Part shown: piece after piece, positions 11,733 to 49,254 of the stretch | How positions within the stretch are numbered: position 1 is the first letter of the stretch | Layout: each line of letters begins with the position of its first letter | NCBI GenBank assembly: GCA_045643725.1 | Contig: JAZRFQ010000044.1 | Coordinates: forward strand, 5,136 to 69,135 | Direction of reading: 5' to 3' | Length of the DNA: 64,000 nt | Origin: Eubacteriales bacterium | GTDB taxonomy: Bacteria > Bacillota > Clostridia > Oscillospirales > CAG-272 | Program-made: the position numbers and the translations under genes | Notes under the pieces: generated by a model | Seen by the model: the letters and a program-made list of their open reading frames with translations, nothing else | Told to the model about the DNA's origin: nothing | Database searches by the model: none

Positions 11733-11772
11733 AAAAAAAGCATAGAAAACAGCCGTTTTCTATGCTTTTTGT
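11733..11772. terminator. Bidirectional rho-independent terminator between convergent genes
   Basis: A-run, gcatagaaaac-agcc-gttttctatgc, T-run. Confidence 0.8.
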
Positions 11773-11782: not shown

Positions 11783-14278
11783 TTATTTCTTTTTCATAGG
11801 ATCGACAATGCCGAGACGCTCTGCCGCCTCCTCGCGCATCTTGTACTTGAGGATCTTGCCTGCCGCATTCATCGGGAATGCCTCGACAAACTCGATGTAC
11901 TTCGGCACCTTATGGCGCGCCATGCTCGCCTTGATGTAATCGGACATCTCGGCGACAGTCAGACTGCCCGACTCCTTGAGGATAATACAGGCCATTATTT
12001 CCTCGCCGTATTTCTCGTCGGGAACGCCGATTACCTGCACGTCCTTGACCGCGGGATGAGTGTATATGAACTCCTCGATCTCCTTGGGGTAGATGTTCTC
12101 GCCGCCGCGGATGATCATATCCTTGAGACGGCCGGTGATTTTGAAGTTGCCCTGCTCGTCGTAGGATGCGAGGTCGCCCGAGTGAAGCCAGCCGTCCTCG
12201 TCGATGGTATCCTTGGTCGCCATAGGCATCTTGTAGTAGCCCTTCATGGTGTTGTAGCCCTTGGCGCAGAACTCGCCGTTCACGCCGGGGCCGACCTCCT
12301 CGCCGGTCTCGGGATCGACGACCTTACAGCGAACGTGAGGGAATGCGTATCCAACCGTCTCGGTGCGGACGTCAAGAGGATCGGTCCAGGAGCTCATCGT
12401 GTTACCGGGAGCGCACTCGGTTTGACCGTATACGCTGACGATGCCGGTCATATTCATCTCATTCGGATCTGCGGCACGGCGCATCAGGTCTGCAGGACAG
12501 CCCGAGCCTGCCATAATTCCCGTTCTCATATGCGAAAAATCGGTGTTACGGTAGTTCGGATGGTTGAACATCGCGATGAACATGGTGGGAACGCCGTTGA
12601 AGCAGGTGATCTTCTCCTGATTGATGCAAGCAAGCGATGATTTTGCCGAGAAATAGGGCATCGGGCACATAGTAGCTCCGTGAGTCATAGACGAGGTCAT
12701 AGACAACGTCATACCGAAGCAATGGAACATAGGCACCTGGATCATCATACGGTCAGCGGTGGAGAGTCCCATACGGTCGCCGATACACTTGCCGTTGTTT
12801 ACTACGTTATAGTGAGTGAGCATTACGCCCTTAGGGAAGCCGGTTGTGCCCGAGGTGTACTGCATATTGCATACGTCGCCGGGGCGTACTGCCGCCGCCA
12901 TTCTTGCCACCTGCTCGGCGCTGACGAGCTTGTATCGCTCCATCGCCTCGTCAAAGGTAAGAGAGCCGGGCTGCTTGAAGCCGACGGTGATTACGTTTCT
13001 GAGGAAGGGCAGGCGCTTTGCGCGCAGAGGCTCGCCGGGGACGGTGTCCTTGATCTCGGGGCAGAGAGTGTTGATGATCTCCTGATAGTTTGAGTCGAGA
13101 CAGCTGTCGATCATAACGAGGGTGTGAGTGTCCGACTGACGCAGAAGATACTCTGCCTCGTGGATCTTGTAGGCGGTGTTTACGGTTACGAGCACCGCAC
13201 CGATTCTGGTCGTAGCCCAGAAGGTGATATACCACGCAGGAAGGTTGGTCGCCCAAACGGCTACCTTTGAGCCTGCCTTAACGCCGAGGGAGACGAGAGC
13301 TCGCGCGAATCTGTCAACCTCCTCGCGGAACTCGGCGTAGGTACGGGTATAGTCGAGAGTGGTATACTTGAAGCAGAGCTGATCGGGGAACTCGTCGGCA
13401 ACTCTGTCGAGCACCTCGGGGAAGGTGAGATTGATAAGCTCGTCCTTCTTCCAGACGTACTGACCTGTGCCGTCGTGGTTGAAATAGAGCTTTTTCTTCA
13501 TATCTCTCGTAGAGCTGAAGCGCGACATATAATTGGCAAAGTAGGGGAAGATGATCTCGGGATCCTGCAGATCCTCGAGCCAGTCGGGCTTCCACTCAAG
13601 CGAGATGAAGCCGTCGTAATTTACCGATGAGAGCGCACGCATAACGTCGTCGATAGGCATCGTGCCCTCTCCGATGAGCTGATACTTGCCGCTGTCGTCG
13701 GAGTCGCGCATATGAACGTGCTTGACGTAGCAGCCGAGATTCTTTATGGTCTGGTCGCCCGACTCACCGTTATCGCGGTATGGGTGATGAATATCCCAGA
13801 GAACGGCGAGATTATCGCTGGCAAAGCGGTCGAGCATATCGCGGAGTCTGCCGGTGTTGGAGTAGATTCCGCTCGTTTTTACGAGGATGCTGACCCCGAT
13901 GCGCTCGGCGTAAGGAACAAGCTCAAGAAGAGCCGAGTAAACGCCGTACTCGTCGCCCTCGATCGCGCAAACAACAACGTAGGGAACGCGAGCGTTATAG
14001 GCGATGTCCATCAGCGACTTGACCTCATCGATCACCGATCCCTTGACCGATATGTCGAGCGAAGAGTCGAAGCAGGGGATAGAGATCTGCATATCGCGCA
14101 GACGGCGTACGGTCGCTGCCGTGTTGTATTTATGGAAGGGACCGCCGCGGTCAATGAGGGTGTCAAACTTCGGGAGATTGTAGACCTCAACGCCACCGAA
14201 TCCCATGTCGGTTGCTACCTCGAGCATCTCATCAAAGGAGAAGCCGGGCCAACCGCGAGTGGAAAAGGAAAGCTTCAT
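11783..14278 (-). CDS. Fusion protein: xylose-isomerase-like TIM-barrel domain (N) + AMP-forming acyl-CoA ligase (C)
   Basis: 831 aa. The first about 270 aa resemble sugar-phosphate isomerase/epimerase (AP endonuclease 2 fold). The rest carries ANL motifs YTSGTTGFPKGVMLTH, GRLKDMIIRGGENIYPKEIE and NAAGKILK. Confidence 0.8.
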   Translation of the reverse strand: MKLSFSTRGWPGFSFDEMLEVATDMGFGGVEVYNLPKFDTLIDRGGPFHKYNTAATVRRLRDMQISIPCFDSSLDISVKGSVIDEVKSLMDIAYNARVPYVVVCAIEGDEYGVYSALLELVPYAERIGVSILVKTSGIYSNTGRLRDMLDRFASDNLAVLWDIHHPYRDNGESGDQTIKNLGCYVKHVHMRDSDDSGKYQLIGEGTMPIDDVMRALSSVNYDGFISLEWKPDWLEDLQDPEIIFPYFANYMSRFSSTRDMKKKLYFNHDGTGQYVWKKDELINLTFPEVLDRVADEFPDQLCFKYTTLDYTRTYAEFREEVDRFARALVSLGVKAGSKVAVWATNLPAWYITFWATTRIGAVLVTVNTAYKIHEAEYLLRQSDTHTLVMIDSCLDSNYQEIINTLCPEIKDTVPGEPLRAKRLPFLRNVITVGFKQPGSLTFDEAMERYKLVSAEQVARMAAAVRPGDVCNMQYTSGTTGFPKGVMLTHYNVVNNGKCIGDRMGLSTADRMMIQVPMFHCFGMTLSMTSSMTHGATMCPMPYFSAKSSLACINQEKITCFNGVPTMFIAMFNHPNYRNTDFSHMRTGIMAGSGCPADLMRRAADPNEMNMTGIVSVYGQTECAPGNTMSSWTDPLDVRTETVGYAFPHVRCKVVDPETGEEVGPGVNGEFCAKGYNTMKGYYKMPMATKDTIDEDGWLHSGDLASYDEQGNFKITGRLKDMIIRGGENIYPKEIEEFIYTHPAVKDVQVIGVPDEKYGEEIMACIILKESGSLTVAEMSDYIKASMARHKVPKYIEFVEAFPMNAAGKILKYKMREEAAERLGIVDPMKKK

Positions 14279-15681
14279 TATACCTCCTCCTCGTAGATGA
14301 TCTTATTGAGCGCACTGAGGTATGCCTGAATACCCGCGCCGACAATGTCGGTGGAGATTCCTATGCCCGAATATACCTTTGCACCCGAGCGGAGCTTGAC
14401 GATGGTCTGACCCATAGCCTCGCGGCCCTCTGTAACTGCCTGAAGCTGGAAGTCGTCGAGCTCATAGTGACGGCCGACGATCTTCTCTATAGTCTGGAAT
14501 GCGGCATCGATAGAGCCGTCACCCATATATACGCCCTCAAGAGACTGACCGTCCTTGACGAGCTTGATATGTGCGGTTGCCGCGATGGTGTTGCCCGAGG
14601 TAATAAGGTAGGAGTCGAGCTTGTACGCCGAGGGAACCTGCATAGCAGAGGAGGCAACGATAGCCTCGAGCTCCTTGAGACCAACCTTCTCCTTTTTCGT
14701 CGCGATCTCGCGGAAGGCGTTATATACCTGAACGCTATCCTCCTCGGAGAGCTCGTAGCCGAGCTTGGTTACGGCGAGAGTGATGGTGCTCATATCGTCG
14801 TCTGCTGTGAGGAATACCTCGTCTGCATCGGGAGATGCCGTGCCTTTGGCGGATTTTTTGCTGTTGCCCTTGCACATGCGCTCGATCTGCTCAGTGATTC
14901 TCGTCAGCTCGGTGGTGCGTACCTTGCAGGTAGCGTCGAGAGAGTCGGATCTTGCGGCAATAATGCGAGCGATGTCTGCAAGAGAAACGGTATCAATGGG
15001 ATATATAGCCGCGCATATCTGGGTCGCACCTGCGGTTATAGCCGAAACGGCGCAGGCCTCTGCCATAGAGAGCGCGTCGGAGCAGCGCACACCGAGGGTG
15101 ACGTTCTTCAGCTCGGGGAGCTTCTCATACTGCAGAGCGATAAAGCTCTCAAGCTCGGAGGGAAGCATACCGCCCGCTGTATCGCAGAGCGTTACGGTGG
15201 TAGCACCTGCCTCGATAGCCGTCTTGATAGCAAGGGCAAGGAAGTCCTGCTCGCTGCGAGTCGCATCGTTTGCGATGAACTCAACGTCGGAGCACAGAGC
15301 CGCGCATCTTGCGACGGAATCGCGGATATCGTTTATCATAGCATCGGGCTTCTTATGGAAGATATATTCTATTTGCACGGCACTCGTGGGCGCGCATACC
15401 TGAAGACGAGGCTTCTTCGCGAGCTTGAGCGCGGCCCAGGTATCGTTGATGCTTTCCACATTCATCGATACGGGAACGGCAATGCAGCTGTCGCTTACTG
15501 CGGCCCCGATAGATTTAATTCTGAGCGAATCAATACGGAGGTTCTCAATGCCCTCCAGCTCGATAACGTCTGCACCGAGTCTGTCCAGCAACTTTGAAAA
15601 CTCGATCTTTTCCTTGAAGGATAGGCAAAAGCTCTCGGAAAACTGTTTCATAGTTGCGTCGCTGATTTTGATCTGCTTCAT
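14278..15681 (-). CDS. 2-isopropylmalate synthase-like protein with degenerate catalytic motifs and an intact LeuA C-terminal regulatory domain
   Basis: 467 aa, collinear with LeuA. It has ISDATMKQFSE in place of DTTLRDGEQ and RCSDALSMA in place of HxHDDLGMA. The C-terminal ..GDGSIDAAFQTIEKIV..GIGISTDIVGAGIQAYLSALNKI is LeuA_dimer-like. Confidence 0.75.
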   Translation of the reverse strand: MKQIKISDATMKQFSESFCLSFKEKIEFSKLLDRLGADVIELEGIENLRIDSLRIKSIGAAVSDSCIAVPVSMNVESINDTWAALKLAKKPRLQVCAPTSAVQIEYIFHKKPDAMINDIRDSVARCAALCSDVEFIANDATRSEQDFLALAIKTAIEAGATTVTLCDTAGGMLPSELESFIALQYEKLPELKNVTLGVRCSDALSMAEACAVSAITAGATQICAAIYPIDTVSLADIARIIAARSDSLDATCKVRTTELTRITEQIERMCKGNSKKSAKGTASPDADEVFLTADDDMSTITLAVTKLGYELSEEDSVQVYNAFREIATKKEKVGLKELEAIVASSAMQVPSAYKLDSYLITSGNTIAATAHIKLVKDGQSLEGVYMGDGSIDAAFQTIEKIVGRHYELDDFQLQAVTEGREAMGQTIVKLRSGAKVYSGIGISTDIVGAGIQAYLSALNKIIYEEEV

Positions 15682-15701
15682 GATTTTCTTCCTCTCAAAT
15701 T

Positions 15702-15984
15702 AAATAAAAAAGCCCCTGTGCCGACTAATCGGTCAAGGGACGAAAAAATTCGCGGTACCACCCTAATTATCTCTACGGGAGAGATCACTTTCCAGCCTCA
15801 AATAAGGCCACACCCTGTAACGGAGGCATCCGTGTCCGATTACTCGCATATCGCTTTGACAGGACCGACTCGGGAAGGAGAATACCAAAACCGTTCGTAT
15901 CGGCTCGCACCAAGCGCCGACTCTCTGTGACGTCTGAAATTGGCATATTTTCCGTCATTGTCTTTTTAAAATGGCGATTAAATT
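15702..15984 (-). promoter_or_regulatory. T-box riboswitch leader (tRNA-sensing attenuator) for the 15681<-11783 operon
   Basis: Read on the minus strand: GA motif tgacggaa, AGAGAG bulge, distal-loop GGTGCGA, F-box CCGTTA, and T-box aattagggtggtaccgcgaa (15749-15768). A terminator hairpin cccttgaccga..tcggcacagggg plus T-run lies at 15705-15740. Confidence 0.85.
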
Positions 15985-15990
15985 AAATAT

Positions 15991-16019
15991 ATTAAACCAC
16001 TTCGCGGGCGATTTGTCAA
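15991..16019 (-). promoter_or_regulatory. sigma-A promoter of the minus-strand T-box leader
   Basis: On the minus strand: TTGACA, 17 nt, TGg-TTTAAT. Confidence 0.6.
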
Positions 16020-16115
16020 GCAATTTTTGTATGAATAAAGGCAATTATTCGTTTTTAAACAAACGAAAGGGGCAAAAAAACGCTTTTTTTGTTGAAAATC
16101 ACAATAAAAAAGTGT

Positions 16116-16144
16116 TTGACATTCAAAAAAAGATGTGCTAAAAT
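16116..16144 (+). promoter_or_regulatory. sigma-A promoter of the plus-strand T-box leader
   Basis: TTGACA, 17 nt, TGc-TAAAAT. Confidence 0.65.
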
Positions 16145-16150
16145 ATTCGT

Positions 16151-16407
16151 ATAAAAACTGTGACGAAGACGGTACGGTGAGAGAGTTTTCAGAGAGTCGG
16201 CGCTTGGTGCGAGCCGATAGCTTGTAGCCGAAATACCCATCACTTCCGAGTTGAAGATCTGAACGGCTGCGTTAGGGTCTTACGTTTCCCGCGTTAAGGG
16301 TAAGAGCTTGTTAGAGCTTGAAGTGGCGTTTATCGCAAATTGAGTGGTACCGCGGGTATAATTACTCGTCTCAAGAAGTTGTTTCTTGAGGCGTTTTTTG
16401 TTTTTTA
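16151..16407 (+). promoter_or_regulatory. T-box riboswitch leader for the 16447-> operon
   Basis: GA motif tgacgaag, AGAGAG bulge, distal-loop GGTGCGA, F-box-like GCGTTA, and T-box aaattgagtggtaccgcggg (16337-16356). A terminator cgtctcaagaa-gttg-tttcttgaggcg plus T-run lies at 16368-16407. Confidence 0.85.
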
Positions 16408-16446
16408 TGCCCCGATTTCAATATTGATCGAACAGGAGGAAATAAT

Positions 16447-18714
16447 ATGACCAACCAGTATAACGTCAGTCAGCTTCAGAGGATCGCGCTTCGAATTCGC
16501 GAGATGCGCGAGATTTTCGGTTACAGCACCTCGAAGATGGCGGAGATGATAGATATCACCGAGGAGGTATATCTTTCTTACGAGTCGGGTGCGGTCGACC
16601 TACCCTTCACATTTATGCATAAGTGCGCCCAGGCCTTCGGCGTGGAGATCACCGATATTCTCGAGGGTCACAGCGCAAAGCTCTCGGGATATACCGTTAC
16701 CCGTAGAGGCGAGGGTCTCACTACCGCGAGCGAGGATGGCATTACCATTCAGGATATGGCACCTCTTTTCAGACATAAGCTGGCAACACCCTATTGGGTA
16801 ACCTATAAGTACTCCGAGGAGCTTCAGAGCCGTCCGATCAGCACGGTTACTCACGCAGGTCAGGAGTTCGATATGGTCGTCAAGGGTGCGATGCGCATCC
16901 GCATTGGCGATCACGAGGAGACTCTGCGCGAGGGCGACAGTATCTTCTTCAAGTCCTCCACACCTCACGGTATGATAGCCGTCGGCGGCGAGGACTGCGT
17001 GTTCCTTGCTATGGTCATGGCGAGCGATAGCACCGATCAGCCCATGTACGTTGGCGAGCCTACCAATACAAAGCAGACACAGCCTCTTCTTTGCGAGAAG
17101 TTCGTGAAGCCTGTAGAGAACGAGAACGGCGAGCTTCTTGACGTTCGCTTCTCCAATGAGGACAGATATAACTTCGCGTTCGATACCGTCGACGAGATAG
17201 CGCGTAAGTATCCCGACAAGCTCGCGATGCTCCACGTTGCAAACGATATGACCGAGCGCAGATTTACCTTTAAGGATATGAAGGAAGCCTCCTCGCAGAG
17301 CGCTAACTACTTCAAGTCCCTCGGCATCAAGCGCGGCGACAGAGTTATGCTCGTTCTCAAGAGACATTATCAGTTCTGGTTCGCAATACTCGGCCTTCAT
17401 AAGCTCGGCGCGATCGCAATTCCCGCGACCAATCAGCTCGTTGAGCACGATTTCACCTATCGCTTCGAGGCGGCAGGCGTCAGCGCGATACTCTGTACCG
17501 CAGACGGCGATACCGCGCGTCAGGTCGAGCTCGCAGAGGAGAAGAACGGTCTTTCGCTCACCAAGGTCATAGTCGGCGGCGAGAGGGAAGGATGGCACCA
17601 TTATGACAGCGAGTACGGTCTCTTCAGCCGCAGATATCTGCGCGAGCCCGATGCTCCCTGCGGAAACGATCCCATGCTTATGCTCTTTACCTCGGGCACG
17701 ACAGGCTATCCCAAGATGGCTATGCATTCCTACAAGTACGCACTCGGTCATTACGTGACCGCGAAATATTGGCACCGTTGCGAGCAGGACGGACTTCACT
17801 TCACGATTTCCGAGACCGGATGGGGCAAGGCTCTGTGGGGCAAGCTCTACGGTCAGTGGCTCTGCGAGGGCGGAGTATTCACCTATGACTTCGACAGATT
17901 TGACTCGTCGAAGATACTTCCCATGTTCGCAAAGTACGGTATAACCACCTTCTGTGCACCCCCTACGATGTACAGAATGCTTATCAAGCAGGATCTGGGC
18001 AACTACGATCTCTCGTCTATACGCCACGCGACAACAGCGGGCGAGGCGCTCAACCCCGAGGTCTTCTATCAGTTCGAGAAGGCTACTGGCCTGCGCATTG
18101 CCGAGGGCTTCGGACAGACCGAGATGACTCTCGGTATCGCAAATCTCGTTGGCACGAAGCTCAAGCCCGGCGCAATGGGTAAGCCCGTTCCCGGCTACGG
18201 CATCGACCTCGTCGATCCCGACGGGAAGCCGGTTGCCGACGGTGTCAACGGCGAGATCGTTATTCGCACCAAGCCGAAGAAGCATCCCGGCGTCTTCCTT
18301 GGCTATTATCTGAACGAGGATGCGACAAAGAACGCTTGGCACGACGGTCTCTATCACACAGGCGACGTTGCGTGGCGTGATGAGGACGGCTATTATTGGT
18401 ACGTAGGTCGCGCAGACGACGTCATCAAGTCCTCGGGCTACAGAATCGGCCCGTTCGAGATAGAGTCCACCATTATGGAGCTTCCTTACGTGCTTGTGTG
18501 CGGTGTTTGCGCCGCGCCCGACGAGGTAAGAGGTCAGGTCGTCAAGGCTTGCATCGTTCTCGTTCCCGGAGTGGAGGCTACTGACGAGCTCAGACGCGAT
18601 ATTCAGAATTACGTCAAGCAGCATACCGCGCCCTACAAGTATCCGAGAATAGTTGAGTTCCGCACCGAGCTTCCCAAGACTATAAGCGGAAAGATCATGA
18701 GAAATAAGCTTTAA
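16447..18714 (+). CDS. Fusion protein: XRE-type HTH + cupin domain (N) + AMP-forming medium-chain-type acyl-CoA ligase (C)
   Basis: 755 aa. The first about 70 aa are HTH_3-like (..FGYSTSKMAEMIDITEEVYLSYESG..). Next comes a cupin (..HAGQEFDMVVKGAMRIRIGDHEETLREGDSIFFKSSTPHGM..). ANL motifs follow: FTSGTTGYPKMAMH, YHTGDVAWRDEDGYYWYVGRADDVIKSSGYRIGPFEIES and PKTISGKIMR. Confidence 0.85.
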   Translation: MTNQYNVSQLQRIALRIREMREIFGYSTSKMAEMIDITEEVYLSYESGAVDLPFTFMHKCAQAFGVEITDILEGHSAKLSGYTVTRRGEGLTTASEDGITIQDMAPLFRHKLATPYWVTYKYSEELQSRPISTVTHAGQEFDMVVKGAMRIRIGDHEETLREGDSIFFKSSTPHGMIAVGGEDCVFLAMVMASDSTDQPMYVGEPTNTKQTQPLLCEKFVKPVENENGELLDVRFSNEDRYNFAFDTVDEIARKYPDKLAMLHVANDMTERRFTFKDMKEASSQSANYFKSLGIKRGDRVMLVLKRHYQFWFAILGLHKLGAIAIPATNQLVEHDFTYRFEAAGVSAILCTADGDTARQVELAEEKNGLSLTKVIVGGEREGWHHYDSEYGLFSRRYLREPDAPCGNDPMLMLFTSGTTGYPKMAMHSYKYALGHYVTAKYWHRCEQDGLHFTISETGWGKALWGKLYGQWLCEGGVFTYDFDRFDSSKILPMFAKYGITTFCAPPTMYRMLIKQDLGNYDLSSIRHATTAGEALNPEVFYQFEKATGLRIAEGFGQTEMTLGIANLVGTKLKPGAMGKPVPGYGIDLVDPDGKPVADGVNGEIVIRTKPKKHPGVFLGYYLNEDATKNAWHDGLYHTGDVAWRDEDGYYWYVGRADDVIKSSGYRIGPFEIESTIMELPYVLVCGVCAAPDEVRGQVVKACIVLVPGVEATDELRRDIQNYVKQHTAPYKYPRIVEFRTELPKTISGKIMRNKL

Positions 18715-18769
18715 TGGGCAAAAAACACAAAATACCCCCTAACCGTGTTAAATATTTACTGAAAAAGTA

Positions 18770-18799
18770 TTGACAAGCACAGTTGTAATTGAGTATAAT
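18770..18799 (+). promoter_or_regulatory. Internal sigma-A promoter ahead of the second ligase paralog
   Basis: TTGACA, 18 nt, TATAAT in the 162-nt gap. Confidence 0.55.
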
Positions 18800-18876
18800 A
18801 TCTCTATTAATTAAAATTTTTAGGACAAAATCCGCGCACTCTCGACAGAGACCGCGGAGCATCCAATACATACGAG

Positions 18877-21156
18877 GTGGTTTCGGCGATGGACGGAATG
18901 AAGGACAAACTTAATCAAATAGCGGCGCGAATCAAGGAGCTCCGTATCGTTACGGGACTTACCGTCGAGGAGATGGCGGCCCGTACCGGCATTACCGTAG
19001 AGGAGTACGAGCAGTGTGAGGCAGGCAACCGCAATCTCAGCGTAGCCTTTCTTTATCATTGTACCCTCAGCTTCGGCGTCGATCTCGGAGATCTTCTCGA
19101 GGGTAAGAGCCCGAAGCTCCGTCAGTATGCTCTGACTCGTCGCGGCGGCGGTCAGCGCATCGAGGAAGCGCACAATATGATAGGCTTCAACCTCGCGGCA
19201 GAGTTCCGTAACCGTATTGCTCTTCCGCTTTATATGGAGCTTTCCTATAACGGTGACGAGGAGAATATCGAGCTCGTGACTCACGAGGGTCAGGAGTGCG
19301 ATATCGTCATCAAGGGACATATGAAGATACGCATCGGCGAGAAGACCGAGATCCTCGGCCCCGGCGACTGTATTTACTTCGACTCGGGTACACCCCACGG
19401 CATGATAGCCGTTGGCGGCGAGGATTGTAGCTTCTATGCCATCGTCCTCAGAAACCAGGCGGCAAGACTTGGCGAGCAGGGCGCAGTTCCCTCGGTCGCT
19501 ACCAAGAGATATGCCGACGATGCAGGCAGCCGTATTTATCAGGACTTCATCATTCCCACCGAGGAGGGCGGAATTCTCAAGAAGATCGCCTTCAAGAACG
19601 AGGACAAGTTCAACTTCGCCTTCGACGTAGTCGACGAGCTTGGAAAGCGCAAGCCGGATAAGCTTGCGATGCTCCACGTCAGCGAGGATGGCACCGAGCA
19701 CAGATTTACCTTCAGCGATATCAAGAAGGAGTCGGCAAGAGCCGCAAATTACTTCAAGTCTCTCGGCATCAAGCGCGGCGACAGAGTAATGCTCATTCTC
19801 ACACGCCACTATCAGTATTGGTTCTCGGTCATCGGCTTACATAAGCTCGGCGCGATAGCAATCCCTGCACCCAACCAGCTTCTTGAGAAGGATCTCAAGT
19901 ACAGATTCGAGGCAGGAAACGTCAAGGCTATTCTTTGCACCGCGGACGGCGAGGTCTCGAGCGAGGTAGAGCGCGCGGCAGAGCAGTGCCCGAATCTTGC
20001 TCACAAGATACTCGTGGGCGGCGCTCGCGAGGGTTGGCACAGCTTCGATGAAGAGTACAGCCTCTTCAGCAGTCACTATGCACGCACTGAGGATGCTCCC
20101 TGCGGCAACGATCCGATGCTGATGTTCTTCACGTCGGGCACGTCGGGATATCCCAAGATCGCGGCGCATAACTATAAATATCCTCTCGGTCACTTCATTA
20201 CCGCGAAGTATTGGCATCAGGTCAACTCCGAGGGACTTCACTTCACGATTTCGGATACCGGCTGGGCAAAGTCCATGTGGGGTAAGCTCTACGGCCAGTG
20301 GCTCTGCGAGGCGGCGATCTTCGTCTATGACTTCGACAGATTCACTCCCGAGAACATACTTCCTATGTTTGCAAAGTACGGCATCACCACGTTCTGTGCA
20401 CCTCCTACGATGTACAGAATGCTTATCAAGCAGGATCTCTCGAGATTCGACCTCTCGACTATAGAGCACGCGTCCACCGCGGGCGAGGCTCTCAATCCCG
20501 AGGTATTCCGTCAGTTCGAGAAGCACACCGGTCTTCAGATCATGGAGGGCTTCGGTCAGTCCGAGAGCACTCTTATCATCGGTAACCTCTCGGGCGACAG
20601 TCACAAGATGGGCTCTATGGGTAAGCCCGTGCCTCTCTACAAGGTTCGTCTGCTTGATGCCGACGGCGCAGAGGTTGCACGCGGTGAGACGGGTGAGATC
20701 TGTATCGACATCTCGGGGGGCCTACCCTGCGGTCTTGCGTATGCCTACGATGCGAACGAGGAGGTCACCGCACAGACCTGGCGCGACGGTTATTATCACA
20801 CCGGCGACGTTGCCTGGATGGACGAGGACGGCTTCCTTTGGTACGTTGGACGAGTTGACGACGTTATTAAGTCCTCGGGCTACAGAATCGGTCCCTTCGA
20901 GATCGAGAACGTTATTATGGAGCTTCCCTACGTTCTTGAGTGCGGTGTATCCGCCGCTCCCGACGAGGTCAGAGGTCAGGTCGTTAAGGCGAGCATAGTT
21001 CTCGTAAACGGCTTCAAGGGCACCGACGAGCTCAAGCGTGAGATCCAGAACTACGTCAAGTCGAGAACCGCACCCTATAAGTACCCGAGAATTATCGAGT
21101 TCCGCGACAGTCTTCCTAAGACCACAAGCGGCAAGATCATCAGAAAACAGCTGTAA
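18877..21156 (+). CDS. Second XRE-HTH + cupin + AMP-forming acyl-CoA ligase fusion (paralog of 16447..18714)
   Basis: 759 aa with the same three-module architecture and ANL motifs (FTSGTSGYPKIAAH, ..GRVDDVIKSSGYRIGPFEIEN.., PKTTSGKIIR). The start may be the ATG at 18889, 11 nt after GAGG, rather than the GTG at 18877. Confidence 0.85.
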   Translation: MVSAMDGMKDKLNQIAARIKELRIVTGLTVEEMAARTGITVEEYEQCEAGNRNLSVAFLYHCTLSFGVDLGDLLEGKSPKLRQYALTRRGGGQRIEEAHNMIGFNLAAEFRNRIALPLYMELSYNGDEENIELVTHEGQECDIVIKGHMKIRIGEKTEILGPGDCIYFDSGTPHGMIAVGGEDCSFYAIVLRNQAARLGEQGAVPSVATKRYADDAGSRIYQDFIIPTEEGGILKKIAFKNEDKFNFAFDVVDELGKRKPDKLAMLHVSEDGTEHRFTFSDIKKESARAANYFKSLGIKRGDRVMLILTRHYQYWFSVIGLHKLGAIAIPAPNQLLEKDLKYRFEAGNVKAILCTADGEVSSEVERAAEQCPNLAHKILVGGAREGWHSFDEEYSLFSSHYARTEDAPCGNDPMLMFFTSGTSGYPKIAAHNYKYPLGHFITAKYWHQVNSEGLHFTISDTGWAKSMWGKLYGQWLCEAAIFVYDFDRFTPENILPMFAKYGITTFCAPPTMYRMLIKQDLSRFDLSTIEHASTAGEALNPEVFRQFEKHTGLQIMEGFGQSESTLIIGNLSGDSHKMGSMGKPVPLYKVRLLDADGAEVARGETGEICIDISGGLPCGLAYAYDANEEVTAQTWRDGYYHTGDVAWMDEDGFLWYVGRVDDVIKSSGYRIGPFEIENVIMELPYVLECGVSAAPDEVRGQVVKASIVLVNGFKGTDELKREIQNYVKSRTAPYKYPRIIEFRDSLPKTTSGKIIRKQL

Positions 21157-21186
21157 AAGATTGCACCTCGGTGCAGAGAAAAATAT

Positions 21187-21849
21187 ATGAAAACAGATTC
21201 TAAAAGACTAACGCTCTTCGCAGGTCATTACGGAAGCGGCAAGACGAATATTGCCGTCAACTACGCCTACAAGCTGGCAAGAGAGGGAAAGCGGGTCTGC
21301 ATTGCCGATCTCGACATTGTAAATCCCTACTTCAGAACCAAGGATAGCGAGGCAGAGCTTGAGGCTCTCGGCATTCGCCTTGTTTCGCCCCAATATGCCA
21401 ACACGAACGTGGATCTTCCGGCACTTCCCGCAGAGAGCTACAGATTAGTACAGGATAAATCAACCTACGGAATTATGGACATCGGCGGCGATGACAGAGG
21501 TGCTTACGCTCTCGGTCGCTTTGCCGATGCTATAAAGAGCGAGGACGATTACCGTATGGCATTCGTCGTTAACTGCTACCGTCCCATGACGGCAACGGTG
21601 GAGGATGCCGTAGAGATAATGAGAGAGATCGAGGCGGCCTGCGGCATTCGCTTTAACTGCATCGTCAACAACTCTAATCTCGGTGAGGAGACCACCTCGG
21701 CGACCGTTCGCGATTCGCTCGATTTCGTAGATCGCCTCAGCCAAGCTACCGGACTTGAGATCTGGATGCACACGGCAGAGGAGTCGGTGGCAGAGGAGCT
21801 TTCTGAGCTTTCCGTTATGCCTCTTTCGCTTCAAAAGAAGAAATTTTAA
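21187..21849 (+). CDS. P-loop NTPase (SIMIBI-class, MinD/GPN-like), function unknown
   Basis: 220 aa. Walker A GHYGSGKTN, then ..CIADLDIVNPYF.. and ..MDIGGDD... It sits between the ligase and oxidoreductase genes. Confidence 0.65.
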   Translation: MKTDSKRLTLFAGHYGSGKTNIAVNYAYKLAREGKRVCIADLDIVNPYFRTKDSEAELEALGIRLVSPQYANTNVDLPALPAESYRLVQDKSTYGIMDIGGDDRGAYALGRFADAIKSEDDYRMAFVVNCYRPMTATVEDAVEIMREIEAACGIRFNCIVNNSNLGEETTSATVRDSLDFVDRLSQATGLEIWMHTAEESVAEELSELSVMPLSLQKKKF

Positions 21850-21896
21850 CTTGCGCGGCAGATGAGCCACCGTGAGTTTGAAAAAGGAGAATATAA

Positions 21897-22103
21897 ATGG
21901 CAAAGGTAACGTTTAATACCGATATGTGCAAGGGCTGTGGACTTTGCGTTGACGCGTGTCCGAAGAGCTGCCTTGCAATCGCAGATGACAGACTTAATCA
22001 GAAGGGATACTCTCCCGCTTATATGAAGGAGAGCGAGAAGTGTATCGGCTGTGCCTTCTGTGCTACTATGTGTCCCGATTGTATAATCACCGTAGAGAAA
22101 TAA
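21897..22103 (+). CDS. 2-oxoacid:ferredoxin oxidoreductase delta subunit (2x[4Fe-4S] ferredoxin)
   Basis: 68 aa with CKGCGLCVDACP and CIGCAFCATMCP. Confidence 0.9.
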   Translation: MAKVTFNTDMCKGCGLCVDACPKSCLAIADDRLNQKGYSPAYMKESEKCIGCAFCATMCPDCIITVEK

Positions 22104-22113
22104 GGAGGTTGCT

Positions 22114-23175
22114 ATGGCTGACAGAATTTTAATGAAGGGTAACGAGGCTATCGCAGAGGCCGCGATCCGTGCGGGCTGCCGTCACTACTTCGGTTATCCT
22201 ATCACTCCCCAGACAGAGATCGCCGCTTATATGGCAAAGAAGATGCCCAAGATCGGCGGAGTATTCCTTCAGGCAGAGAGCGAGATCGCATCTATAAATA
22301 TGGTTTACGGCGCAGCTGCGGCAGGTATGCGCGTTATGACCTCATCCTCGAGCCCCGGAATTTCGCTTAAGACCGAGGGACTCAGCTACATAGCAGGCTC
22401 CGACGTTCCTGCACTCGTTGTTAACGTACAGCGCGGCGGCCCCGGACTCGGCGGCATTCAGCCCTCCCAGTCTGATTACTTCCAGGCGACGAAGGGCGGC
22501 GGTCACGGTGACTACCGTATGATCGTTCTTGCGCCCGCATCGGTTCAGGAGATGGCGAGCCTTACTATCAAGGGCTTTGATCTCGCTGACAAGTATAATA
22601 TGACCTCTATGATCCTCGCAGACGGTACCATCGGTCAGATGATGGAGCCCATCACCTTCGAGGACGCCGAGATCAAGACCTATGAGAAGCCCTGGGCTCT
22701 CACAGGTACCGAGAAGAAGCGTGCTCACAACATAGTTAACTCTCTTTACCTCAAGCCCGATGAGCTTGAGAAAAAGAACTTTGAGCGCTTTGAGAAGTAC
22801 GCCGAGATCGAGAAGACCGAGGCAATGTGGGAGAACTATATGACCGAGGACGCAGAGATCTGCGTTGTAGCCTTCGGTATTGCCGCACGCGTTGCCAAGA
22901 ACGCCGTTGCCGCGGCAAGAGCAGAGGGCATCAAGGTCGGTCTTATCCGCCCCATCACCCTTTGGCCCTTCCCCAACGCCGCATTCGATGCGGTAAAGAA
23001 TGCAAAGGCATTCATCTCGGTAGAGCTCAGTATGGGACAGATGATCGAGGACGTGAAGCTTGCTAGCAAGTGTCAGAAGCCCGTCTCTCTTTGCAACCGC
23101 TCGGGCGGTATGATCCCCTCGCCCGATGAGGTTCTCGAGGCTATAAGAAATGCAGCGAAAGGAGTGAATGAATAA
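22114..23175 (+). CDS. vorB: 2-oxoacid:ferredoxin oxidoreductase alpha subunit (VorB/KorA-type)
   Basis: 353 aa. N-terminus ..[30 protein letters not shown].. is typical of this subunit. The branched-chain (VOR) assignment rests on the four-subunit layout and the adjacent ilvE. Confidence 0.8.
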
Positions 23176-23927
23176 TGGCAACCGTATTTGAAAAACCTAA
23201 ATCCTTAACAGACACTCCGTTCCATTACTGTCCCGGATGTCCCCACGGTATAATCCACCGCCTCGTTGCAGAGGTTATGGATGAGCTTGATATCGAGGGT
23301 AAGGCAATCGGCGTTGCACCCGTAGGATGCGCCGTTATGGCGTACGATTACTTCGCTTGCGATATGATCGAGGCTCCTCACGGCAGAGCACCCGCTGTTG
23401 CTACCGGCATCAAGCGCTGCCGCCCCGATAACGTCGTATTCACCTATCAGGGTGACGGCGACCTTGCGTCTATCGGTATGGCAGAGACGGTTCATTCAGC
23501 GGCAAGAAACGAGAACATCACGGTTATCTTCGTAAACAACGCGATCTACGGTATGACCGGCGGTCAGATGGCTCCTACCAGCCTTCCCGGTCAGGTTACC
23601 CAGACCTCTCCCTACGGCCGTGACGACAAGCACTGCGGTTGGTCCATTAAGGGCAGCGAGATGCTCGCAACCCTCGAGGGCCCCGAGTACATCGCACGCG
23701 TAGCGGTAAACAACGTAAAGAACGTCAAGAACGCCAAGAAGGCTATCAAGAAGGCCTTTGAGAATCAGATAGCAGGAAAGGGCTTCTCTCTCGTAGAGGT
23801 CGTTTCCGCCTGCCCCACCAACTGGGGCATGACTCCCAAGGCGGCACTCGAGTGGATAGAGAGCGATATGCTTCCTTACTATCCCATCGGAGTATACAAG
23901 GACAGAAGCGCAGGGGAGGAGAAGTAA
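23175..23927 (+). CDS. 2-oxoacid:ferredoxin oxidoreductase beta subunit (TPP-binding)
   Basis: 250 aa with ..YCPGCPHG.. and the TPP motif ..[19 protein letters not shown]; ATGA-type overlap with the alpha subunit. Confidence 0.85.
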
Positions 23928-23928
23928 T

Positions 23929-24468
23929 ATGAAGACAACACAGATCCTCATCGCCGGCTTCGGCGGACAGGGAATACTCTTCTCGGGTAAGTTCCTCGCT
24001 TACAAGGGACTGACCGAGGAGCTTCAGGTATCCTGGCTTCCCTCGTACGGCCCCGAGATGCGTGGCGGTACTGCAAACTGTAACGTAATTCTCTCGGACG
24101 ATCCCGTTGGCTCGCCCATTATCACCGCACCCGACGTTCTTATCGCTATGAACCTGCCCTCGCTTCAGAAGTACGTTAATTCTGTTGTAGCAGGCGGTCA
24201 GATATACGTTGACTCCTCTCTTATCGACGTCAAGGTCGAGAGAGACGACGTTCAGGTGTTCTACATTCCCGCAACTCAGATGGCGAAGGATGCAGGCATC
24301 GCTACTCTCGCGAATATGATCATCATCGGTCACCTTCTCGAGAATCATCCCGAGCTTTCCTTCGACGGCGTTGACGTGGTTGTTGATAGCCTTGTGCCTC
24401 CCAAGAAGGCGGCGCTCAAGGAGCTCAACATTAAGGCACTCACTCTCGGTAAGAACTACAACAAATAA
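23929..24468 (+). CDS. 2-oxoacid:ferredoxin oxidoreductase gamma subunit
   Basis: 179 aa; ..[29 protein letters not shown].. is typical of the gamma subunit. Confidence 0.85.
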
Positions 24469-24522
24469 AAAATGCGCCCACCTGACGTCAAGCGGTGCGG
24501 CACTTATAAAACGGAGACAATT

Positions 24523-25548
24523 ATGGAAAAGAAAAATATCGACTGGGCTTCTCTCGGCTTCGGCTATATGGAGACCGACTACAGCTACGTTTCCTACTAC
24601 AAGGACGGCAAGTGGGATGACGGCGCTCTTACCGCCGAGCACACCGTAACTCTCAACGAGTGTGCTTGCGTGTTCCAGTACGCGCAGACCTGCTTCGAGG
24701 GACTCAAGGCATACACCACCGAGGACGGCAGAATCGTTACCTTCCGCCCCGACCTCAATGCACAGCGTATGGCTGACTCTGCAGAAAGACTCAGAATGCC
24801 CGTATTCCCCGTGGAGAGATTCATCGAGGCGGTTAAGATGGTCGTAAAGGCTAACGCCGCATACGTCCCCCCCTTCGGCTCGGGCGCAACTCTCTATATC
24901 AGGCCCTATATGATGGGAACCAACGCGGTTATCGGCGTTAAGCCTGCAACCGAGTATATGTTCCGTATTCTCGTAACTCCCGTAGGCCCTTACTTCAAGG
25001 GCGGCGTTAAGCCTCTTACCGTAAGACTTTCCGACCTTGACCGCGCCGCTCCTCACGGAACAGGTCACATCAAGGCAGGTCTTAACTACGCGATGAGCCT
25101 TTACAACATCGTTGAGGCTCACGAGCTCGGCTACGACGAGAACATCTACCTTGATGCCGCAACTCACACCAACATCGAGGAGACCGGCGGCGCTAACGTC
25201 CTCTTCGTTACCAAGGACGGCGGAGTTGCAACTCCCAAGTCTGATACCATTCTCCCCTCCATTACACGTCGTTCTCTTATGGTAGTTGCCAGCGATTACC
25301 TCGGACTCAAGGCAGAGGAGAGAGTTATCTCCAAGGACGAGCTTGACAGCTTTGCCGAGTGTGGCCTTTGCGGTACTGCGGCCGTTATCTCTCCCGTTGG
25401 TAAGATCGTTGACCACGGTCGCGAGATCTGCTTCCCCGCAGGTATGACCGAGATGGGCCCTGTTACCAAGAAGCTTTACGAGACGCTTACCGGTATCCAG
25501 ATGGGACGCATCGAGGCTCCCGAGGGATGGATCGTTGAGATCAAGTAA
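24523..25548 (+). CDS. ilvE: Branched-chain-amino-acid aminotransferase (class IV)
   Basis: I chose the start at MEKKNIDW (GGAG 6 nt upstream) rather than the ORF-track 24472. ..FEGLKAY..DGRIVTFRPD.N..R...S..RL.MP.. and the length match IlvE. Confidence 0.85.
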   Translation: MEKKNIDWASLGFGYMETDYSYVSYYKDGKWDDGALTAEHTVTLNECACVFQYAQTCFEGLKAYTTEDGRIVTFRPDLNAQRMADSAERLRMPVFPVERFIEAVKMVVKANAAYVPPFGSGATLYIRPYMMGTNAVIGVKPATEYMFRILVTPVGPYFKGGVKPLTVRLSDLDRAAPHGTGHIKAGLNYAMSLYNIVEAHELGYDENIYLDAATHTNIEETGGANVLFVTKDGGVATPKSDTILPSITRRSLMVVASDYLGLKAEERVISKDELDSFAECGLCGTAAVISPVGKIVDHGREICFPAGMTEMGPVTKKLYETLTGIQMGRIEAPEGWIVEIK

Positions 25549-25570
25549 TCAAAATCTACAATAAAAAACA

Positions 25571-25615
25571 AGAGCCAGGCTAAACGCGGAAAAAGCATTA
25601 GCTTGGCTCTTTTTA
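25571..25615. terminator. rho-independent terminator closing the ligase-VOR-ilvE operon
   Basis: 12-bp stem agagccaggcta..tagcttggctct followed by a T-run. Confidence 0.75.
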
Positions 25616-27366: not shown

Positions 27367-27370
27367 GCCT

Positions 27371-28165: not shown

Positions 28166-28209
28166 CGCGATTATATACAAATAATTTTATATTTATATAG
28201 GAGGCAATC

Positions 28210-49251: not shown

Positions 49252-49254
49252 TTG

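Follow-up and report, generated by a model that had tools for sequence, protein, structure and literature searches.

Why should acyl-CoA ligases, a 2-oxoacid:ferredoxin oxidoreductase (VOR) and a branched-chain aminotransferase lie behind RNA leaders that respond to uncharged tRNA? T-boxes normally control genes of amino-acid supply. The locus which raises this question belongs to an uncultured Clostridia bacterium from gut or rumen (Eubacteriales bacterium, CAG-272) and lies in the window, that is, the whole 64,000-nt stretch of DNA analyzed (GCA_045643725.1, JAZRFQ010000044.1, positions 5,136-69,135, forward strand). We consider, with a probability of roughly 0.7, that it is a salvage pathway by which branched short-chain fatty acids from outside the cell become branched-chain amino acids (BCAA), and that the matching tRNA turns it on when uncharged.

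All genes listed in the initial annotation proved real by their Pfam and NCBIfam matches (Table 1). A comparative survey found the locus kept in 80 Oscillospirales species. All 80 loci come from metagenome-assembled genomes of gut or rumen, mostly from ruminants, with horse and human (Hadza) samples in addition. One more gene linked to the locus, for an Amidohydro_2 protein, was absent from that first list; more than 30 relatives have a homologue of it (38-82% identity) next to the locus.

Table 1. Features of the locus in window coordinates.
Feature	Position	Strand	Description
Terminator closing the Leu (minus) arm	11735..11770	-	16-bp stem, T-run; 13 nt past the ligase stop
TIM-barrel (AP_endonuc_2)::acyl-CoA ligase fusion	11783..14278	-	831 aa; Pfam
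LeuA-like protein (pLeuA)	14278..15681	-	467 aa; Pfam HMGL-like, LeuA_dimer
Leu T-box terminator hairpin and U-run	15702..15741	-	fold GUCCCUUGACCGAUUAGUCGGCACAGGGGC, then UUUUUU
Leu T-box leader	15733..15967	-	RF00230 117.2 bits, E 2.8e-25; specifier CUC at 15880-15878
Leu-arm promoter	15991..16019	-	TTGACA, 17-nt spacer, TGgTTTAAT; read from the sequence directly
Ile-arm promoter	16116..16144	+	TTGACA-17-TAAAAT, extended -10 TG; 11/12 match
Ile T-box leader	16151..16376	+	RF00230 104.8 bits, E 4.5e-22; specifier AUC at 16239-16241, then A
Ile T-box terminator	16367..16405	+	12-bp stem (hairpin 16367-16393), then TTTTTTGTTT; z -2.7
Ligase 1, HTH(XRE)-cupin-Macs-type acyl-CoA synthetase	16447..18714	+	755 aa; Pfam HTH_19/HTH_3, Cupin_2, AMP-binding, AMP-binding_C
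Internal promoter before ligase 2	18770..18799	+	TTGACA-18-TATAAT, 12/12; no T-box behind it
Ligase 2, paralogue with HTH-cupin-ligase architecture	18877..21156	+	759 aa; Pfam domains as ligase 1
SIMIBI-class P-loop NTPase (CbiA/ParA-like)	21187..21849	+	220 aa; Pfam CbiA 29 bits
VOR, four subunits	21897..24468	+	Pfam POR_N/PFOR_II, TPP_enzyme_C, POR
VOR delta, 2x[4Fe-4S]	21897-22103	+	two CxxCxxCxxxCP motifs
VOR alpha, VorB-type	22114-23175	+	NCBIfam VorB 548 bits, cut-off 399
VOR beta, TPP	23175-23927	+	
VOR gamma	23929-24468	+	
IlvE, class IV branched-chain aminotransferase	24472..25548	+	NCBIfam PRK13357 456 bits, cut-off 307
Bidirectional terminator, ilvE and convergent amidohydrolase gene	25570..25611	both	14-bp hairpin
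Amidohydro_2 metal-dependent hydrolase or decarboxylase	25673..26530	-	285 aa; Pfam PF04909, 101 bits

The initial annotation had claimed two divergent T-boxes and predicted Leu and Ile as their amino acids, and the Rfam scan bore this out. Both leaders exceed the gathering score of the RF00230 covariance model (93 bits), both are full-length matches (model positions 1-219), and a separate promoter and intrinsic terminator belong to each. The specifier contexts in the covariance-model alignment are AUC-A and CUC-C, thus the predicted codons. The Leu terminator hairpin (about 15741-15712) and the 3′ half of the antiterminator share sequence. Neither the S-turn motif nor the conserved purine behind the specifier is present in the minus-arm T-box, and this purine is also missing in many leaders of the related loci. 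Both leaders are genuine transcription-attenuating T-boxes, one for Leu (CUC) and the other for Ile (AUC).

The specifiers were then surveyed in relatives by a pairing-based rule. Among 76 orthologous ligase-1 leaders, ATC was the sole candidate in 48 and stood among the candidates in 25 of the other 28. Before the LeuA-like gene the same rule gave CTG (29 leaders), CTC (13) or CTT, so that this specifier varies among Leu codons only. In 26 relatives a third T-box, with the Val codon GTC or GTA, precedes ligase 2 (by the pairing rule GTA in nine and GTC in six leaders); it is absent in this window. RF00230 confirmed the Val leaders, with 99.9 bits in locus L077, 83.9 in L016, 80.7 in L054 and 73.5 in L053. 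Synonymous variation confined to Leu or to Val codons is the behaviour expected of a true specifier.

How far does T-box control extend along the two arms? The Ile-arm promoter pattern TTGAC.TTT...TGnTAnAAT is kept in 47 relatives, and the Leu-arm promoter was missed by the promoter scan because position 2 of its -10 hexamer is T. The internal promoter claimed earlier for the 162-nt gap (18715-18876) is there, with a perfect consensus. Most relatives keep a promoter at this site, followed in 26 of them by the Val T-box. The terminator claimed at 25571-25615 was found as well, slightly shifted; for the plus strand the fold reaches -23.5 kcal/mol (z -5.6), for the minus strand -22 kcal/mol (z -3.4), and there are U-runs on both. 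The Ile T-box would gate ligase 1 and read-through into the remaining plus arm; expression of ligase 2, the P-loop protein, VOR and IlvE would be maintained by the strong internal promoter. The Leu arm, which lacks genes for a VOR and an aminotransferase, would be gated separately by its own T-box, and the T-box-free promoter would make the shared downstream enzymes available to it. In the window the locus is therefore no single, clean T-box regulon, and T-box control of the shared steps is at most partial in view of the unattenuated promoter.

Both plus-arm ligases, which are 60% identical to each other, carry an XRE-type HTH and a Cupin_2 domain at the N-terminus, which the initial annotation overlooked. 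The start of ligase 2 is likely the ATG at 18889. Their ligase modules are close homologues of MacsMa of M. acetivorans (606 bits for ligase 1 against PDB 3ETC) and of S. aureus MbcS, the top NCBIfam model for both (420 and 426 bits, short of the equivalog cut-off of 850). Both known enzymes favour alpha-branched acids: MacsMa prefers 2-methylbutyrate (PMC10455477), while MbcS activates 2-methylbutyrate and isobutyrate, and isovalerate poorly (PMC10026030). The poor use of isovalerate fits the presence of a separate ligase clade in the Leu arm. Unlike these two enzymes, ligases 1 and 2 are T-box-gated and have about 240 extra N-terminal residues with the HTH and cupin modules, which are probable sensors or regulators. 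On homology and T-box context we propose ligase 1, behind the Ile T-box, as a 2-methylbutyrate-CoA ligase, ligase 2, whose orthologues lie behind Val-specifier (GUC/GUA) T-boxes, as an isobutyrate-CoA ligase, and the TIM-barrel fusion as the isovalerate-CoA ligase of the Leu arm. Each would use ATP and CoA. The common VOR would then carboxylate each acyl-CoA to the 2-oxoacid with reduced ferredoxin and CO2, and IlvE would aminate this to Ile, Val or Leu; in relatives without IlvE an NAD(P)H-dependent Leu-dehydrogenase-like enzyme would do so.

The Leu arm contains more than this simple scheme needs, namely the TIM-barrel domain, pLeuA and the linked amidohydrolase. In the fusion protein Pfam finds AP_endonuc_2 at residues 20-232, AMP-binding at 291-682 and AMP-binding_C at 733-808; its top NCBIfam model is PRK12583 (662 bits, cut-off 832), and the fusion gene stands behind a Leu T-box in 54 loci. 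pLeuA shares with 2-isopropylmalate synthase LeuA the HMGL-like TIM barrel and the LeuA_dimer allosteric domain, so the architecture seen by the initial annotation is real, and the gene lies behind a Leu T-box. The catalytic residues are gone, however, and it is no LeuA synthase. It stays under every NCBIfam LeuA cut-off (281 vs 532), and alignment with solved LeuA structures gave KQFSE in place of RDGEQ and RCSDA in place of HCHND, thus without the Arg-Asp of RDGEQ and without both His of the metal-site HxH. The same loss was found in 63 orthologues and, among 113 clusters at 50% identity, in about 110. Unlike in LeuA, the regulatory half is the better kept one (conservation 0.77 for the C-terminal domain vs 0.58 for the barrel). 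pLeuA, with its degenerate barrel, lacks the catalytic metal ligands across the whole family and, judging by these alignments, is probably a pseudoenzyme. Its stop codon overlaps the start of the fusion gene by 1 nt. We propose it as the Leu-sensing partner of the Leu-arm ligase, with its leucine-binding regulatory domain probably exerting leucine feedback on the translationally coupled enzyme.

Could these parts carry out some other chemistry? The fused ligase might activate a precursor other than isovalerate, and the TIM domain, the amidohydrolase and the LeuA-like protein might lead from it to 2-oxoisocaproate or leucine. This would give a role to three conserved proteins or domains left without one, and it agrees with the invariant acidic residues of the TIM domain (E31, D155, E172, D192, E204, E228). 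In several more distant relatives labelled Acutalibacteraceae, moreover, pLeuA and the fusion gene behind the Leu T-box are followed by the amidohydrolase gene, which there lies between the fusion gene and the Ile T-box. But the former active site of pLeuA is variable across the family, not merely changed, which argues against new catalysis there; a dehydrogenase or isomerase set that could complete another route is lacking, and the Leu arm always adjoins the VOR locus. We regard such chemistry as quite unlikely.

The shared enzymes come next. IlvE, whose start is likely near 24523, also matches TIGR01123 (376 bits, cut-off 250). In the PDB, matches to the P-loop NTPase were weak throughout (MinD/ArsA/Mrp P-loop proteins); its gene always lies between ligase and VOR in loci that extend to that point, and it would probably serve the maturation of VOR or otherwise help it. 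Among the accessory roles, support falls from pLeuA feedback through HTH-cupin sensing to this aid to VOR. VOR often stands directly behind a T-box-gated ligase; in many relatives VOR and the aminating gene lie 0-7 nt behind it. For at least 20 relatives the gaps behind such a ligase, through the P-loop, VOR and aminating genes, measure -8 to +7 nt, and in L053 the Val T-box is immediately upstream of the P-loop and VOR genes. The gene right after vorG is of IlvE type in 27 loci and of Leu-dehydrogenase type (Glu/Leu/Phe/Val, ELFV, dehydrogenase family) in 17, together 44 of the 46 loci with sequence there.

In which direction does VOR run? VOR-type enzymes and IlvE are reversible, and they are catabolic in many anaerobes. 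The locus could then degrade BCAA by IlvE and VOR, with ligases that recycle or detoxify the acids and T-boxes as an incidental or misread input. However, AMP-forming ligases cost two ATP equivalents and conserve no energy, and searches with Pfam and NCBIfam revealed neither a phosphotransacylase/kinase pair nor an ADP-forming synthetase for ATP harvest. Conservation of three T-boxes and their matching specifiers across 80 species rules out an incidental role, and we consider degradation very improbable. The position of VOR behind T-boxes and beside AMP-forming ligases points to the biosynthetic direction, and we propose that it runs as a reductive carboxylase.

Another destination for the acyl-CoA is membrane lipid. 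The ligases, with S. aureus MbcS as a model, and an oxidative IlvE-VOR pair, which would resemble the B. subtilis Ldh-BKD operon but depend on ferredoxin, could feed branched acyl-CoA primers to FabH; T-boxes would only turn the cell to acids from outside once there is too little of the amino acid for deamination. IlvE or Ldh with a 2-oxoacid-oxidizing enzyme also makes up a catabolic pathway, as in the bkd operon. VOR and IlvE stand in the window under a T-box-free promoter, and MbcS has exactly the lipid-primer role, its product going to lipid and not to amino-acid synthesis (PMC10026030). In many relatives, however, VOR and the aminating gene follow an Ile or Val T-box so closely that no promoter fits in between; with oxidative use, starvation for an amino acid would there induce its degradation. 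The known connection of T-boxes with amino-acid supply and the coupling of a leucine-regulatory-domain protein to the Leu-arm ligase also speak against primers as the purpose, and we find this explanation unlikely. The acyl-CoA pool could serve lipid and amino-acid synthesis alike.

We thus return to salvage into amino acids. The Ile/Leu route proposed by the initial annotation is supported by the T-box scores, the Leu and Ile specifiers, the Macs homology and the packing of VOR and aminating genes. Its scope was right for Ile and Leu but too narrow, in view of the Val T-box of 26 relatives. The Ile, Leu and Val specifiers of the relatives, the VOR packing and the exchange of IlvE for Ldh support salvage into all three BCAA. 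Most likely the cluster turns isovalerate into leucine, 2-methylbutyrate into isoleucine and isobutyrate into valine; substrates, flux direction and induction are what we infer here.

As for precedent, PMC2812497 cites Robinson and Allison 1969 for the conversion of 2-methylbutyrate to isoleucine by reductive carboxylation in rumen anaerobes; for M. ruminantium, that paper deduces the route only from a missing threonine-pathway gene. A search of open-access and bioRxiv full texts returned neither a dedicated bacterial locus for reductive carboxylation, or its regulation, nor a T-box regulon with ligase, VOR and IlvE. Rumen bacteria and methanogens carboxylate isovalerate, 2-methylbutyrate and isobutyrate to Leu, Ile and Val, and our proposal shares this chemistry and the ecological setting; what differs is that a specific, regulated locus is proposed here. 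The nutritional trait has been known since the 1960s, and the locus would provide candidate genes for it.

The four-subunit VOR known from Thermococcales and from methanogens has the same delta, alpha, beta and gamma subunits. The pairing of a 2-oxoacid-converting enzyme with a transaminase or leucine dehydrogenase recurs in the bkd operon of B. subtilis (Ldh plus BKD). Unlike both, this locus has starvation-sensing T-boxes upstream, AMP-forming ligases alongside and a conserved P-loop NTPase inserted before the delta subunit. With the BCAA T-box regulons (the Leu T-box of B. subtilis ilv-leu and those of ileS, valS and leuS) it shares the RF00230 family, Stem I with its specifier codon, the T-box antiterminator, the competing terminator and the logic by which uncharged tRNA turns on the supply of the cognate amino acid. 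The genes gated here, in contrast, encode acyl-CoA ligases, a ferredoxin oxidoreductase and an aminating enzyme rather than an aminoacyl-tRNA synthetase, ilv/leu enzymes or a transporter. Many of its leaders also differ in lacking the purine after the specifier, and a locus may hold up to three T-boxes (Leu, Ile, Val), one per ligase.

The Rfam scan of the whole window gave only two matches above the gathering score (93 bits for RF00230), both of them T-boxes lying back to back. The covariance-model alignment shows UGA...GAG, AGAGA and UUGGUG, as expected of a Stem I with K-turn, specifier loop, AG bulge and distal loop. Behind each of the T-box sequences, AAUUAGGGUGGUACCGCG and AAAUUGAGUGGUACCGCG, comes a hairpin with a U-run, and both intrinsic terminators overlap the 3′ half of the antiterminator. 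Since each leader also has its own promoter, both are by their sequence classical transcription-attenuation T-boxes, for which antitermination by uncharged tRNA is predicted. The minus-strand leader opens the Leu arm, with a LeuA-like protein (pLeuA) and a fusion of a TIM barrel with an acyl-CoA ligase (TIM::ligase). The plus-strand leader opens the Ile arm, with acyl-CoA ligases 1 and 2, a P-loop protein, a four-subunit 2-oxoacid:ferredoxin oxidoreductase (VOR, genes vorDABG) and a branched-chain aminotransferase (IlvE).

The initial annotation had described the same layout. Its two back-to-back T-box leaders both exceed the RF00230 gathering score, and Pfam and NCBIfam models confirm the two AMP-forming ligase paralogues, the P-loop NTPase, the four-subunit oxidoreductase and the class IV aminotransferase of the plus arm, as well as the LeuA-like protein and the TIM-barrel::ligase fusion of the minus arm. 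The single terminator proposed to close the plus arm at 25571-25615 was found as a hairpin at almost the same place (table).

Table. Features of the two-armed locus in the window
Feature	Position	Strand	Remarks
Terminator closing minus arm	11770..11735	-	strong
TIM::ligase	11783-14278	-	AP_endonuc_2 TIM barrel + AMP-binding ligase; start overlaps upstream stop by 1 nt
pLeuA	14278-15681	-	HMGL-like + LeuA_dimer
Leu T-box terminator	~15741..15712	-	hairpin, then UUUUUU
Leu T-box leader	15967..15733	-	RF00230 117.2 bits, E 2.8e-25, full-length (model positions 1-219)
Minus promoter	16019..15991	-	TTGACA-17-TGgTTTAAT, read from sequence
Plus promoter	16116-16144	+	TTGACA-17-TAAAAT, extended -10 TG
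Ile T-box leader	16151..16376	+	RF00230 104.8 bits, E 4.5e-22, full-length (model positions 1-219)
Ile T-box terminator	16367-16393	+	hairpin, then TTTTTTGTTT
Ligase 1	16447-18714	+	AMP-binding; 60% identical to ligase 2
Ligase 2	18877-21156	+	AMP-binding; 60% identical to ligase 1
P-loop protein	21187-21849	+	CbiA/ParA-like
VOR delta	21897-22103	+	two 4Fe-4S motifs
VOR alpha	22114-23175	+	NCBIfam VorB (PRK07119), 548 bits vs cut-off 399
VOR beta	23175-23927	+	
VOR gamma	23929-24468	+	
IlvE	24472-25548	+	class IV aminotransferase; PRK13357 456 bits vs 307, TIGR01123 376 bits vs 250 (equivalog cut-offs)
Terminator closing plus arm	25570-25611	both	hairpin -23.5 kcal/mol, z -5.6; U-runs on both strands; common to convergent Amidohydro_2 gene
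Amidohydro_2 gene	25673-26530	-	convergent with ilvE

Long antisense ORFs inside ligase 1 (16600-18624, minus strand, 674 aa) and inside vorG/ilvE (23746-25416, minus strand, 556 aa) are frame artefacts of codon usage and not genes; a naive ORF call gives similar artefacts at 47607-50647 and 55305-58789.

A genome scan with one genome per species returned 594 matches, from which 80 loci (L001-L080) were kept and compared by a tblastn map and a T-box motif scan. All are from MAGs labelled Oscillospiraceae, Faecousia, Acutalibacteraceae, Ruminococcus, Eubacteriales or Clostridia, and they were sampled from gut and rumen, in most cases of ruminants, but also of horse and human (Hadza). The closest relative among them is 90% identical. 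The arrangement is conserved as a whole, the usual order being TIM::ligase and pLeuA, divergent T-boxes, then ligase 1, (ligase 2), the P-loop gene, vorDABG and an aminating enzyme. In some more distant relatives (about 66-75% identity, many labelled Acutalibacteraceae) all genes are co-directional. One Acutalibacteraceae MAG (L070) also has, some 8 kb upstream of the locus, a Gut-1 RNA at 1778-1848 (RF01706, 56.5 bits; gathering score 50).

Which amino acid does each leader sense? MFE folding of Stem I paired the specifier region (z about 0) and was dropped for codon choice; covariance-model alignment and a comparative rule, which locates the specifier by K-turn pairing only, were used instead. 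In the plus leader the specifier loop has AAAUACCC-AUC-A on its 3′ side, and the helix CUUC and K-turn CGAG come next, which sets the Ile specifier AUC at 16239-16241 (plus strand). The minus leader reads UU-CUC-C, then UUCC and CGAG, with the Leu specifier CUC at 15880..15878 (minus strand). The base 3′ of the specifier is thus A in the plus leader and C in the minus leader, whose specifier loop also has no S-turn AGUA/GAA. Because of the missing S-turn, and of a C where a purine is usual, comparative proof was sought. The "conserved" purine is often missing from leaders of this locus family: the base after the specifier is C in 13, A in 15, G in 12 and T in 2 Leu leaders, and A in 31, C in 15 and G in 2 Ile leaders.

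Synonymous-only codon variation is the hallmark of a genuine specifier. At the specifier position of the pLeuA leaders (up to 54) we found CTG in 29, CTC in 13 and also CTT, all of them Leu codons. ATC was the sole candidate in 48 of 76 ligase-1 leaders and was among the candidates in 25 of the 28 others. In 26 relatives a third T-box lies between ligases 1 and 2, with the Val codons GTA (9) and GTC (6). The Rfam model supports these Val leaders: one scores above the RF00230 gathering score (L077, 99.9 bits); others fall below its 93 bits, at 83.9 (L016, GUC-G), 80.7 (L054, GUA-G) and 73.5 (L053, GUA-G), the last being placed directly 5′ of the P-loop and VOR genes. The earlier proposal of Ile and Leu gating is supported, with AUC and CUC in the window and the same codon families in the orthologous leaders. 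Having one leader set each for Leu, Ile and Val, with synonymous variation only, the locus family thus appears to give each ligase a T-box of its own, and each branched-chain amino acid its own ligase.

Some other T-boxes were seen in the relatives. In L069 a third T-box (8451-8702, 68.5 bits, below the gathering score) precedes the P-loop and VOR genes and has GAA (Glu?) at the specifier position, with AUC three bases upstream. T-boxes in the flanks of L019 (~16020), L022 (~3786) and L077 (9790-10015) have the apparent specifiers TTC (Phe), TGG (Trp) and CTC (Leu); the one in L077 lies 3′ of ilvE and probably precedes a pLeuA gene that the contig end truncates.

The Val T-box is absent from the window. 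The 162-nt spacer before ligase 2 contains a perfect TTGACA-18-TATAAT promoter at 18770-18799, as the initial annotation had noted for this gap. Just 3′ of it, in the 5′ UTR of ligase 2, lies a stable hairpin without a U-run (18831-18858, TCCGCGCACTCT / AGAGACCGCGGA, -14.8 kcal/mol, z -3.9), which may have been left behind by the lost Val T-box or may be a regulatory element in its own right. Most relatives have a promoter at this place: in long spacers (320-530 nt) the T-box comes after it, and short ones (76-270 nt), to which that of the window belongs, have the promoter only. With a promoter and no T-box before it, ligase 2 would be transcribed, along with the P-loop, VOR and IlvE genes, both from this promoter and by read-through from the Ile T-box. 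The description of the locus as a single T-box regulon consequently stands only in part for this genome: Ile T-box read-through covers the plus arm, but a T-box-free consensus promoter drives ligase 2, VOR and IlvE. Such a T-box-free supply is biologically plausible, given that the Leu arm itself encodes neither VOR nor an aminotransferase.

The ligase module of ligase 1 matches the medium-chain acyl-CoA synthetase of Methanosarcina acetivorans (PDB 3ETC) with 606 bits over residues 217-752, and the preferred substrate of the M. acetivorans enzyme is 2-methylbutyrate (PMC10455477). The best NCBIfam model for ligases 1 and 2 is S. aureus MbcS (NF047394), with 420 and 426 bits, below the equivalog cut-off of 850; by these profile matches they belong to the same clade as Macs/MbcS but are not MbcS equivalogs. 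MbcS is selective for 2-methylbutyrate and isobutyrate and poor on isovalerate (PMC10026030). The ligase of the Leu arm belongs to another clade, PRK12583/FadD-like. Macs/MbcS-type paralogues behind the Ile and Val T-boxes, which correspond to the alpha-branched acids, and another clade in the Leu arm, which corresponds to the beta-branched isovalerate, agree well with MbcS selectivity. From their Ile and Val T-boxes only, we infer a preference of the two paralogues for 2-methylbutyrate and isobutyrate.

In principle the same genes might also serve to break down amino acids or to provide primers for lipids. Synthesis is favoured on three grounds. First, the P-loop, VOR and aminating genes of at least 20 relatives lie -8 to +7 nt behind a T-box-gated ligase, and in L053 they stand directly behind a Val T-box, so that induction by starvation for that amino acid is predicted. 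Second, the gene after vorG is of IlvE type in 27 of 46 informative loci and a 343-aa gene of the Glu/Leu/Phe/Val dehydrogenase family in 17 (L001 13625-14656, L017 18097-19128 and 15 further loci); this non-orthologous replacement keeps only the step from 2-oxoacid to amino acid. Third, AMP-forming ligases spend ATP. A purely catabolic locus was considered and rejected, given the T-box logic and the AMP-forming ligases. The oxidoreductase has the complete domain set (POR_N/PFOR_II, TPP_enzyme_C, POR, 2x[4Fe-4S]) and is of the VOR-type four-subunit OFOR class, with branched-acid activity and the synthase direction predicted. There is a physiological precedent: PMC2812497 invokes for M. ruminantium the reductive carboxylation by which rumen anaerobes form isoleucine from 2-methylbutyrate (Robinson and Allison 1969). 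Two loci (L002, L071) have neither ilvE nor the dehydrogenase after vorG; in L002 two ORFs take this place, which by eye look MaoC/hot-dog-like (145 aa) and nitroreductase-like (180 aa).

In the Leu arm, alignment of pLeuA with solved LeuA structures shows RDGEQ replaced by KQFSE and HCHND by RCSDA, so the catalytic Arg and all three metal ligands (Asp, His-x-His) are missing. The same loss was found in 63 orthologues. A search of 1.8 billion cluster representatives gave 347 relatives at E <1e-30, and only 3 of the 113 full-length representatives compared keep RD and HxH; these three have 497-516 aa, the size of real LeuA. The best NCBIfam LeuA model reaches 280.9 bits, below its cut-off of 532, and the LeuA_dimer domain is matched with 101.8 bits over positions 5-130 of the 131 of PF08502. 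Among orthologues the mean identity to the window residue is 0.77 in LeuA_dimer vs 0.58 in the barrel. We considered a true synthase with altered specificity and rejected it: outside those three representatives, the positions of the former active site vary among the relatives and have not been re-fixed. We therefore read pLeuA as a probable pseudoenzyme retained for its leucine-binding domain and, as it is translationally coupled to the Leu-arm ligase, as a candidate feedback subunit of that enzyme.

Other parts of the locus leave room for extra chemistry in the Leu arm, namely the HTH/cupin, P-loop, TIM barrel and amidohydrolase components. The only structures matched by the TIM domain and the amidohydrolase are uncharacterised entries from structural genomics (3WQO, 3CJP). 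More than 30 relatives have the amidohydrolase gene along with the locus; several of the more distant ones have it behind the Leu T-box, after pLeuA and TIM::ligase. The P-loop gene always stands between a ligase and vorD. PDB sequence matches of its product, to MinD, ArsA and Mrp, reach no further than the Walker A region, and the homologue search found close relatives only, named "ParA family" or "hypothetical". An AlphaFold model from a shallow alignment was poor (pLDDT 62), and Foldseek matches (SRP GTPases, TM <0.3) were not meaningful.

Ligases 1 and 2 begin with about 200 residues, overlooked in the first reading, in which Pfam identifies an XRE-type HTH and a Cupin_2 domain. Thousands of metagenome homologues of ligase 1 share this architecture, and both domains are under purifying selection (12 and 23 invariant positions in 79 sequences). 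By sequence the module has no relative in PDB. Inverted-repeat scans of both promoter regions gave A/T-rich low-complexity pairs only, and an alignment of 47 orthologous promoters revealed only the -35 and extended -10 as conserved. With no operator in either, HTH autoregulation at these promoters is unsupported.

These components can be combined in one reading, in which each branched-acid ligase would have its own product sensor at the protein level, acting on top of the RNA-level T-box. The isovalerate ligase would have gained an allosteric subunit from a catalytically dead LeuA, of which only the leucine-binding regulatory domain is kept. The ligases for 2-methylbutyrate and isobutyrate would be "trigger enzymes", sensing a metabolite and binding DNA through their fused HTH-cupin module, and the conserved P-loop NTPase would be a dedicated helper enabling VOR to work in the carboxylating direction. 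We consider this combination rather unlikely, at about one chance in four. If true, the classical pathway's feedback module would have been captured by the committed step of this one.

No canonical ilv or leu gene is present among the genes annotated within the 64-kb window. The locus is flanked by glycoside hydrolases (GH16, GH3), ABC transporters and a LytTR two-component system. Upstream lie two paralogous predicted lipoproteins (2515-4779 and 4966-7407, ~750-810 aa) with the common Cys/His-rich N-terminal motif HEHAYT..APTCT..GYT..TC.CG, a 409-aa protein and an ABC/FtsX pair (8723-11682). Downstream, a polysaccharide-utilisation neighbourhood (27329-39484) has two GH16 genes, one encoding 1146 aa with repeated beta-sandwich modules, two GH3 genes and a histidine kinase with a LytTR regulator (34947-36970); it is followed by an Opp-like ABC system (40064-47579) with an unusually long ATPase of 714 aa.

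Since the 1960s, fibre-degrading anaerobes of rumen and gut have been known to require or use isobutyrate, 2-methylbutyrate and isovalerate and to make amino acids from them by carboxylation, and the "isoacid" supplements for dairy cattle rest on that trait. The locus would provide a concrete and widely conserved gene set for it, with at least 80 Oscillospirales species, 594 genome-scan matches and thousands of metagenome protein homologues. It may serve as a marker for predicting branched-acid dependence from MAGs. The predicted substrates of the three ligases can be read directly from the T-box specifiers (Leu, Ile, Val). Acyl-CoA ligases and a ferredoxin oxidoreductase are added to the range of the T-box regulon, and two unstudied protein types come to light, namely LeuA pseudoenzymes, which form a large family, and the HTH-cupin-ligase fusions. 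A full-text search of open-access papers and bioRxiv, where absence is no proof, found neither T-boxes linked with VOR or branched-acid ligases nor a gene-level description of a bacterial route from branched acids to amino acids. Taken singly, the RNA element, enzyme families and physiology are already known; their combination in a conserved, T-box-arrayed salvage locus appears to be new, as do the assignment of substrates from specifiers and the two odd protein types.
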